18,664 nucleotides of DNA from assembly GCF_003334255.1 (NCBI RefSeq), contig NZ_QOWU01000073.1; one strand, 5' to 3'. Of the stretch, positions 2,878-3,215 are shown piece by piece. The position numbers and the translations under genes were made by a program. This DNA comes from Escherichia coli. Its GTDB lineage: Bacteria > Pseudomonadota > Gammaproteobacteria > Enterobacterales > Enterobacteriaceae. The notes beneath the pieces were generated by a model. It made no database searches and was not told where the DNA came from. It saw nothing but the letters and a program-made list of their open reading frames with translations. Within the stretch, counting starts at the first letter, position 1; each line of letters opens with the position of its first letter.

Positions 2878-3180
2878 GCGACCTTATTATCCATGCGCGG
2901 TATTGTCGCCGTATTCCTGCATTAACAGAGACCGCAGCCCGACAGGGAGACTCCTCTGCGAGAGTGTGCGGGGATAATCAAAAACGATACACACCGGGGT
3001 TTACCGCGTTAACGGAGCGCGGCGTTGTCCCCTCATGGTCGCTGGTCCGGTGCGATGGTGGAAGAAACCGGACGATGTGTTACCTCGCAAGCTCTGTTAT
3101 GTCATGTGTCTGATTTGTGATTTAAGTCGGATAATTGTCGTTGCCATTAAACAGAGGATTGATGACCGACAGGGTGGCAT

Positions 3181-3201
3181 TGTTAGAATAAGACTTATTC
3201 T
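3181..3201 (+). promoter_or_regulatory. Putative extended -10 promoter (TGtTAGAAT) overlapping a perfect 8-bp inverted repeat (AGAATAAG a CTTATTCT)
   Basis: TG at 3181-3182, hexamer TAGAAT at 3184-3189. Inverted repeat arms at 3185-3192 and 3194-3201, immediately upstream of the lipoprotein gene. No convincing -35. Confidence 0.3.
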
Positions 3202-3215
3202 TATCTGTGCCGGGA

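Follow-up and report, generated by a model that had tools for sequence, protein, structure and literature searches.

A candidate structured RNA element and a moron with a putative promoter share a gap in the late region of an Escherichia coli lambdoid prophage

What occupies the gap of about 330 bp that separates a 74-amino-acid open reading frame (ORF) from a lipoprotein gene in the late region of an Escherichia coli lambdoid (pro)phage? We addressed this question in a window of 18,664 nucleotides (nt), which is the whole stretch of DNA that was analyzed (NCBI RefSeq assembly GCF_003334255.1, contig NZ_QOWU01000073.1). A sequence-only reading of this window had placed the gap at positions 2878 to 3215, had suggested that a dimeric regulator controls the lipoprotein gene, and had pointed to GC-rich hairpins and to a candidate promoter overlapping a perfect inverted repeat; an RNA encoded in the gap was mentioned in passing. 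That aside became the main point of our analysis, as the GC-rich hairpins turned out to be helices of a conserved, strand-specific, structured element of 181 nt. As judged from sequence comparisons, the gap is a mosaic of two unrelated and independent modules that meet at a junction, one at positions 2893 to 3073 and the other at positions 3075 to 3669. On balance, we favor the explanation that the first is a structured RNA module and the second a promoter-bearing moron.

The two modules were separated by a megablast search of phage genomes with positions 2600 to 3600, which retrieved two non-overlapping sets of relatives, one matching positions 2600 to 3073 and the other positions 2896 to 3600, with only about 2893 to 3073 in common. 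The view of the gap as one long regulatory region was therefore abandoned, since its 5' 196 nt (2878 to 3073) contain an element that occurs in hundreds of phages without the lipoprotein gene and are unrelated to that gene. The gap starts at 2878, just past the stop codon of the 74-amino-acid ORF, and probably ends at 3221 rather than 3215, because the lipoprotein gene has its conserved start at 3222, the second ATG, and the sister allele has ATA at 3216. Within the limits 2878 to 3221, the claim that the gap is noncoding was borne out.

In an alignment of diverse copies of the first module, similarity began at ATGCGC (2893) and ended at ACCGGA(C) (3073), and the sequences on both sides were completely unrelated, with several types of left and right flanks. 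Searching 5426 complete E. coli genomes with the gap as the query returned a match in 1911 of them, at 4552 places (median of 2 and maximum of 9 per genome). Most of these matches spanned query positions 16 to 196 alone, and no feature was annotated at the element in any matched record of the 1911 genomes. A sensitive search of phage genomes found the element in 398 phage records, and a covariance model built from the alignment matched the window at 2893 to 3072 with a score of 212.7 bits. Copies are present in phage lambda (about 46867 to 47033, between bor and lambdap78), in the DLP12 prophage of E. coli K-12 (579008 to 579174, between borD and ybcV), in phages 434, 2G7a, 4A7, and Perceval, in Shigella phage POCJ13, and in prophages Sp5 and Sp10 of strain Sakai; the curated record of phage 434 leaves the stretch blank. 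In Shiga toxin (Stx) phages of the 933W type, both Stx1 and Stx2, the element precedes the small terminase gene by about 110 nt. Its position was the same throughout: in 134 of 134 loci, the element was downstream of Rz and the endolysin gene, upstream of the terminase genes, and co-oriented with all of them. Morons inserted behind the lysis cassette, where present, also precede the element. The nearest recognized genes varied in these loci. On the upstream side, Rz came nearest in 63 loci, bor (opposite strand) in 33, the 74-amino-acid ORF in 19, and KilA-N in 11; on the downstream side, two opposite-strand genes, ylcI (47 loci) and DUF1398 (29), were the most frequent, followed by the TonB-like gene and terminase (16 each). 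Of 159 copies fetched through the 3' motif, 153 also had the exact 5' motif.

RNAalifold analysis of 13 diverse copies gave a consensus made of a long 5' hairpin (P1, an 11-bp P2, and apical P3/P4) and a 3' hairpin; a middle hairpin and a pseudoknot were added by reading the variants, beyond this consensus, and pairs were counted on a MAFFT alignment of 45 distinct sequences (Table 1). The fold modeled in this manner would have three parts: an irregular hairpin of about 90 nt (P1 to P4), a variable hairpin with GGG/CCC as its closing helix, and, at the 3' end, an H-type pseudoknot whose third loop is purine rich and conserved. The GC-rich hairpins of the sequence-only reading correspond to the second of these parts, in which GGGG (2996 to 2999) and CCCC (3029 to 3032) enclose CCGCG (3004 to 3008) and CGCGG (3018 to 3022).

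Natural variation preserved the modeled pairing. P1 occurred as six haplotypes, mostly with 7 of 7 pairs and including exchanges among U-A, U-G, and C-G, and of the 17 haplotypes of P2, nearly all had the complete set of 13 pairs, the lambda type having C-G swapped to G-C. At the position of the middle hairpin, alleles carried CCGCG/CGCGG, CUGUG/CGCAG, or CACGUU/AACGUG. In the pseudoknot stem S1, five pairs were altered on both sides (G.U to C-G, U-A to C-G, and C-G to A-U); most alleles kept 7 or 8 of the 9 pairs, L048 kept 6 of 9, and the lambda type was the weakest. In the allele of locus L171, which had no part in the derivation of the structure, new base pairs maintain P4, the middle hairpin, and the pseudoknot; P4 has CCAG-ACA-CUGG in place of CCC-GACA-GGG. 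A second retrieval through the 3' motif yielded 96 distinct sequences in which the helix haplotypes stayed paired.

In the 45 sequences, 93.9% of the pair cells formed standard pairs, compared to 34 to 61% when the partners were slid, 13 pairs were altered on both sides, and none of 500 shuffles reached any of five measures. The covariation score was 0.147, versus at most 0.075 in the slid controls. G.U cells outnumbered A.C cells (243 versus 32), corresponding to pairing of 94.4% on the plus strand and 84.7% on the minus strand, and this excess indicates that the folded form is the plus-strand RNA, in the sense of the late operon. Together, these comparisons indicate that positions 2893 to 3073 probably carry a selected plus-strand RNA structure, whereas we hold any specific mechanism to be much less likely. 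A long-range pairing between the 5' internal loop (GUCGC) and the 3' loop, present in some minimum-energy folds, was dropped for lack of covariation.

Several results weigh against a selected and functional RNA. Folding energy showed no gain over shuffled sequence (z = -0.07 for the plus strand and +0.22 for the minus strand). The copies derive by recombination from perhaps six to eight alleles, which leaves few independent events; identity among them is at least 77%, so that conservation may largely reflect recent ancestry; and the pseudoknot was spotted on the same sequences that were used for its test, making that test partly circular. The family is narrow: a pattern scan of one genome per species found the element in Escherichia only, plus tiny contigs resembling contamination. 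A search with the covariance model found no copy in HK97, P22, or Gifsy-2, and the element is thus not essential for lambdoid late expression. The complementarity of its conserved single-stranded segments to the rest of the window was no better than that of shuffled queries. Finally, an Hfq-CRAC (cross-linking and analysis of cDNA) table for uninduced cells of E. coli O157 Sakai listed no peak on the copies of the element, a result compatible with an RNA that is transcribed only when the late operon is induced or that does not bind Hfq.

Partial copies were also encountered. L050 and L013 (phage D2) were considered as divergent family members and rejected, since they are products of deletion, with the 5' domain joined to a lambda-type cosQ region. 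L228 is a truncated variant in which the 3' domain alone remains. The existence of the truncated forms L050, D2, and L228 indicates that the two domains of the element are separable by deletion. In the K-12 prophage Qin (L015 5468 to 5615, between ydfO and gnsB, on the minus strand of the locus), the covariance model gave a match of 15.7 bits at the syntenic position; the 3' hairpin (GUCCGGC...GAGAGAA GCCGGA) is kept there, the 5' domain and the pseudoknot are not, and the match is possibly a decayed copy or degenerate relic of the 3' hairpin.

The element appears to be part of the late transcript, because no conserved promoter precedes it, its flanks being different, and no U-tract or terminator follows it: none was found after the 3' hairpin by reading the sequence or by terminator calling. 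It would be transcribed within the Q-antiterminated late RNA and would act at the RNA level, most likely as a compact structure that resists nucleases or binds protein. It could mark or shield an RNA end generated when the long late transcript is processed; alternatively, the element could accumulate as a stable, protein-binding RNA late in infection. Of the contents of the gap, this unannotated, lambda-wide structured element is the more interesting part. Lambda and the Shiga toxin phages are among the most studied genomes, and this 181-nt unit has nonetheless been left unannotated everywhere or mis-annotated as hypothetical ORFs and, once, as an "Rz-like spanin." Gene calls in thousands of E. 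coli genomes are also corrected by this result. Should it function as RNA, the element would be a new component of the lambdoid late program, testable in lambda and in DLP12 of K-12.

Comparison with known RNAs did not place the element in any described family. Rfam 15 at gathering thresholds gave no match in the whole window, and at E values of up to 10 it gave only two chance-level matches in positions 2600 to 4000; ARAGORN found neither tRNA nor tmRNA. The literature on small RNAs (sRNAs) or structured RNAs between lysis and packaging genes, or on the borD-ybcV interval, yielded no description of it. The put RNA of phage HK022 is located just downstream of PL/PR, is about 70 nt long, forms two stem-loops, and acts on RNA polymerase. 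The element is akin to put and other cis-acting RNAs of phage operons in being an untranslated RNA within a long phage transcript whose structure is conserved, although the late transcript considered here would already be modified by Q; this comparison was by description. ERIC/IRU and REP/BIME repeats are sharp-edged, transcribed, hairpin-forming intergenic units with many copies per genome. Sharp edges, hairpins, and multiple genomic copies are features shared with the element, which differs in occurring only in lambdoid prophages, as a single copy in each, always at the same syntenic site and in the same orientation, and in its pseudoknotted two-domain fold instead of a single long palindrome.

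The Hfq-binding sRNAs of prophages (AgvB, AsxR, EcOnc, Pas, StxS, and Esr41) are likewise noncoding, multicopy, and located in intergenic gaps of lambdoid prophages. With lengths of 50 to 250 nt, they start from promoters of their own, end at intrinsic terminators, and map just 3' of PR' or close to stx (PMC4104026; bioRxiv 10.64898/2026.05.13.724894); Rfam includes AgvB, AsxR, Esr41, and STnc100 (2026 preprint). The element, in contrast, has no U-tailed terminator and does not match their Rfam models. Judged as an Hfq-dependent trans-acting sRNA, it shows neither a U-tailed intrinsic terminator nor an entry in the Hfq-CRAC table. The Pas sRNAs, AgvB, and AsxR were rejected as identities of the element since they are located elsewhere, 3' of PR' and upstream of the lysis genes.

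Among the alternatives, the one that survives best, unlikely as we consider it, holds that the element has no function as RNA and is a small mosaic patch or "linker" that frequent homologous recombination between lambdoid prophages has maintained, its apparent structure being a by-product of high G+C content and shared ancestry. The folding z scores near zero and the narrow host range speak for such a patch, and the element is itself internally mosaic, its 5' and 3' halves having recombined. Mosaics of temperate coliphages have a median size of about 400 bp and about 96% identity, with small fragments exchanged most often (PMC3945230). However, recombination by itself does not readily account for element ends that agree to the nucleotide across many unrelated flanks, for a position and orientation that are invariant in the 134 loci, or for the excess of G.U over A.C cells, which is unexpected for an element acting at the DNA level. 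Moreover, wholly different sequences give a hairpin at one and the same place, and the pseudoknot pairs change on both sides.

The second module, from 3075 to 3669, was delimited by its absence. Loci L078 and L024 are 94 to 98% identical to the window on both sides and have position 3074 joined to 3670, with a 9-nt overlap. The 595 bp lacking in these loci comprise 141 nt upstream of the lipoprotein gene, the gene itself, and a tail of 121 nt, and all carriers include the upstream 141 nt. From these junctions, the module is best read as a self-contained insertion exactly at the 3' edge of the element, a classical moron. Morons of lambdoid phages, such as bor and lom of lambda and those of HK97/HK022, were reportedly defined by Juhala et al. 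in 2000. The module resembles them in being an extra transcription unit, variably present between late-operon modules, that encodes an envelope protein likely to benefit the lysogen; it differs from typical morons in lacking a recognizable terminator, in having a perfect palindrome over the -10 hexamer, and in encoding a lipoprotein-anchored TonB C-terminal domain.

The lipoprotein has a signal peptide (MKRNLPLIILLSSLVMG, followed by C, with an LVMG/C lipobox) and then a TonB C-terminal domain (Pfam TonB_C, E = 1.6e-14; TIGR01352, 54.5 bits versus a cutoff of 27.1). Homologues were found in 15 phage records only, including phage 21 and one Klebsiella phage. The only diverged allele of the moron, with 72% protein identity, is that of phage 21, ev017, and Perceval. 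Periplasmic expression of the TonB C-terminal domain inhibits TonB-dependent transport. By analogy with Cor or Llp, the lipoprotein may exclude TonB-dependent phages or colicins, and as a free periplasmic TonB C-terminal domain it is a candidate superinfection-exclusion or colicin-resistance factor. We found no functional study of a lipoprotein-anchored TonB C-terminal domain in the literature.

The moron would supply its own sigma-70-type promoter, with a weak -35 hexamer and a TG-extended TAGAAT, for this periplasm-facing lipoprotein, and both this candidate promoter and the palindrome belong to the moron. A promoter for the lipoprotein gene at the 3' end of the gap, as the sequence-only reading had it, remains the most plausible arrangement, given that the insertion brings its own 141 nt of upstream sequence, and the -10 region TGT[T/C]AGAAT is conserved in the diverged phage 21/Perceval allele. 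The promoter match alone is not significant: the extended -10 motif overlapping a perfect inverted repeat is indeed present, but the number of promoter-like sites in positions 2600 to 4000 was 2, versus 2.1 in shuffled sequences. This count tells against a promoter-bearing moron, as does the lack of any terminator-like site on the plus strand of positions 3549 to 3669.

In a rival model, the whole gap is a long regulatory region in which the palindrome is the operator of a dimeric repressor, possibly the ribbon-helix-helix (RHH)-like YlcI/YnfO protein, controlling the lipoprotein gene. This is, in our estimate, an unlikely account of the gap. The palindrome is perfect and extends over positions 2 to 6 of the -10 hexamer and the predicted start of transcription. 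Chance seldom produces such a site: perfect palindromes with 8-bp arms arose in only 2.2% of Markov-shuffled 338-nt gaps and in 0.8% of shuffles of the 142-nt part. A dimeric protein, if bound there, would occlude RNA polymerase. The YlcI/YnfO protein is RHH-like at its N terminus, and its gene lies 130 nt past the lipoprotein gene. Nevertheless, positions 3075 to 3221 are the sole part of the gap that belongs to the gene, and comparative support for an operator was not obtained: the only diverged allele, that of phage 21/Perceval, keeps TGT[T/C]AGAATAAGAC, but the 18 nt that hold the right arm are replaced there by 5 nt, which also counts against our reading of the second module. Other carriers are nearly identical upstream of the gene and are uninformative on the conservation of the palindrome. 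The RHH neighbor is a poor candidate for the regulator, since ylcI follows the element in 82 of 134 loci, among them phages that lack the moron or the palindrome, and no second copy of the palindrome exists near ylcI or elsewhere in the window, even when 3 mismatches are allowed; any protein bound would thus probably not be YlcI/YnfO. Lastly, outside the moron the same 17-mer occurs mainly as a plain terminator hairpin in unrelated low-GC phages and is therefore not diagnostic of a regulator. In view of the sister allele, the palindrome may be an allele-specific operator, or else a feature due to chance or to the insertion.

The 17-nt palindrome, AGAATAAGnCTTATTCT, recurs in L234 to L307, a set of IMG/VR contigs with a median G+C content of 38% that come mostly from one metagenome. 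In these low-GC contigs, it has runs of A and T on either side and resembles an intrinsic terminator for both directions, with no relation to the E. coli moron. Chi-like (GATGGTGG), boxB-like (GCCCUGA), and Fur- or Lrp-like readings of the region upstream of the moron gene were compared by eye with the known motifs and were rejected, none having fitted the spacing or been conserved.

Function on the minus strand, as the 3' untranslated region or terminator of the convergent ylcI or DUF1398 genes or as a minus-strand sRNA, is very unlikely. The stop codon of ylcI abuts the element in phages 434 and 2G7a, and a very abundant Hfq-bound minus-strand RNA of Sakai Sp9/10/12 (EcOnc10-12) ends 11 nt from it. 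However, this RNA lies outside the element once a 139-nt shift is corrected, pairing is lower on the minus strand than on the plus strand (84.7% versus 94.4%), no minus-strand hairpin of the element is followed by a U-tract, and no minus-strand gene abuts the element in the window, lambda, or 933W.

The published coordinates of EcOnc10/11/12 (Tree et al. 2014) are about 139 nt lower than those of NC_002695.2. Assignment of the EcOnc10-12 peaks to the element was rejected because this offset, calibrated on AsxR and AgvB1, moves them off it; after correction, the peaks fall on the ylcI strand, 24 to 72 nt beyond the right-hand edge of the element. EcOnc10/11/12 correspond to the 3' end of the transcript of a ylcI-like gene (L150 5947 to 6007 in Sakai Sp10; NC_002695.2 1946946 to 1947006, minus strand), and this RNA ends at an intrinsic terminator, CUGCUGUG-ACUCCAA-CACGGCAG-U7, located 11 nt from the edge of the element.

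We also considered whether the element is a self-contained "RNA moron" released from the late transcript to act as a decoy for a host factor or defense, the lead being titration of Cas6e. This broad proposal is very doubtful, and the specific proposal of an RNA anti-CRISPR-like decoy in which P2 mimics the hairpin of the type I-E repeat and titrates Cas6e (CasE) is slightly more doubtful still. The comparison relied on what we take to be the type I-E repeat sequence and the rules of CasE cleavage. Within the 3' strand of P2, GCGGGGAUAA (2968 to 2977) matches 10 nt of the E. coli type I-E repeat exactly, across the cleavage site; its partner strand, UUCC(C/U)GC, resembles UCCCCGC, and a few alleles have the exact UCCCCGC/GCGGGGA stem. 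Local alignment gave a P value of about 0.009 for the E. coli I-E repeat and nonsignificant values for the other repeat types, but the comparison was post hoc and the P value rises to about 0.09 after correction for ten tests. In addition, about half of the alleles have GCGGGAAUAA, which differs in the cleavage-site base; a 45-nt insert takes the place of the tetraloop; and the helix goes on below the would-be cleavage site. The element has no conserved promoter of its own, its upstream flanks being unrelated, and no known anti-CRISPR (acr) gene as a neighbor, the neighboring genes being those of lysis and packaging. Phage RNA anti-CRISPRs that mimic repeats do exist, type I-E included (PMC10651486). 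In these Racr, or solitary repeat units, a phage RNA hairpin resembles the host CRISPR repeat (Camara-Wilpert et al. 2023, PMC10651486), and the element shares with them the 10-nt identity and the complementary strand; it differs in not containing a full repeat, in its closing pair (U.G or U-A instead of C-G), in its extended helix, in the lack of a promoter, and in the marginal significance of the match. If the proposal were true, the element would be the first RNA anti-CRISPR of E. coli, unnoticed in lambda and in a third of E. coli genomes.

Coding by the element for a small protein, as in the annotated ORFs (ECs_1218, ORF B85, and minus-strand hypotheticals), can be dismissed for practical purposes: several records do annotate ORFs across it, on either strand, but these disagree in strand and frame, at most 15 of 44 variants of the element are open in any frame, the 67 variable ungapped columns show no preference for a codon phase (23/26/18), 1-nt indels are present among the copies, and the reading frame through the conserved 3' hairpin differs between phages. 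The ORFs across the gap in the window (2838 to 3113 and 3035 to 3286), already suspected to be spurious, likewise showed no codon periodicity, no conserved open frame, and 1-nt indels, and the ORF calls made over the element elsewhere (ECs_1218 and the "Rz-like spanin") look spurious as well. The "Rz-like spanin," ORF B85, is at L004 2476 to 2721 (NC_004913.3 Stx1_p164), and the hypothetical ECs_1218 is in NC_002695.2.

Table 1. Positions of the genes, modules, and predicted structural features in and around the gap
Feature	Position in window	Strand	Description and basis
Endolysin gene			First in the gene order of the late region
Rz	2078-2656		Gene order
74-amino-acid ORF	2653-2877		Gene order; followed by the gap
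Spacer, flank specific	2878-2892 (15 nt)	.	Left of 2893, sequence differs completely between phage groups; several left flanks
Conserved structured-RNA-like element ("core"), 181 nt	2893-3073	+	Sharp ends on both sides
P1, outer helix of 5' domain	2900-2906 / 2984-2990	+	GUAUUGU / ACGAUAC; RNAalifold and haplotypes
P2	2912-2922 / 2966-2976	+	UAUUCCUGCAU / GUGCGGGGAUA, plus A2925-U2965 and C2926-G2964; haplotypes
P3	2933-2937 / 2956-2960	+	CGCAG / CUGCG; RNAalifold and pair counts
P4	2938-2940 / 2945-2947	+	CCC / GGG; RNAalifold and pair counts
Variable middle hairpin	2996-3032	+	GGGG/CCCC enclosing CCGCG/CGCGG; compensatory alleles
Candidate pseudoknot stem S1	3034-3042 / 3052-3060 (in 3' hairpin loop)	+	CAUGGUCGC / GCGAUGGUG; paired changes
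3' hairpin	3045-3051 / 3067-3073	+	GUCCGGU / ACCGGAC; RNAalifold; allelic change to GUCCUGU/ACAGGAC
L3 of pseudoknot	3061-3066	+	GGAAGAAAC (GAAGAA), purine rich, nearly invariant
Direct repeat, left copy (imperfect)	3066-3074	.	AACCGGACG, 9 nt; L078/L024 junction
Moron (5' control region, lipoprotein gene, 3' tail)	3075-3669 (595 bp)	+	Presence/absence polymorphism, clean junction
Candidate -35 hexamer, weak	3162-3167	+	ATGACC; ATGGCC in some carriers
Candidate extended -10	3181-3189	+	TG 3181-3182, n, TAGAAT 3184-3189; 16-nt spacer, 9/12 matches
Perfect palindrome	3185-3201	.	AGAATAAG (3185-3192)-a-CTTATTCT (3194-3201); 100% complementary arms
Lipoprotein gene	3222-3548	+	108 amino acids from ATG 3222; in-frame ATG at 3216; Shine-Dalgarno-like GGGAA 3212-3216
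Direct repeat, right copy	3661-3669	.	AACCGAACG; 3' junction of moron
ylcI/ynfO-family gene	3680-3880	-	66 amino acids, RHH-like N terminus; NF041551 YlcI_YnfO_N, 34.7 bits versus cutoff of 30; outside moron
HNH endonuclease gene			Gene order, downstream of the ylcI/ynfO-family gene
TerS and TerL (small and large terminase subunit) genes	4579-6800		Gene order

Two further observations concern the neighborhood of the gap. The 74-amino-acid ORF had no NCBIfam match and accompanies one left-flank type of the element. Between the HNH gene and TerS, the window contains an 18-bp perfect palindrome, CAGTTAACATGTTAACTG (4381 to 4398), followed by three more copies of (A/C)(T/A)GTTAAC(T/C/A) at about 4457 to 4467, 4481 to 4491, and 4497 to 4507; the repeats of this segment (4381 to 4510) may be binding repeats of the terminase small subunit or of the cos region.

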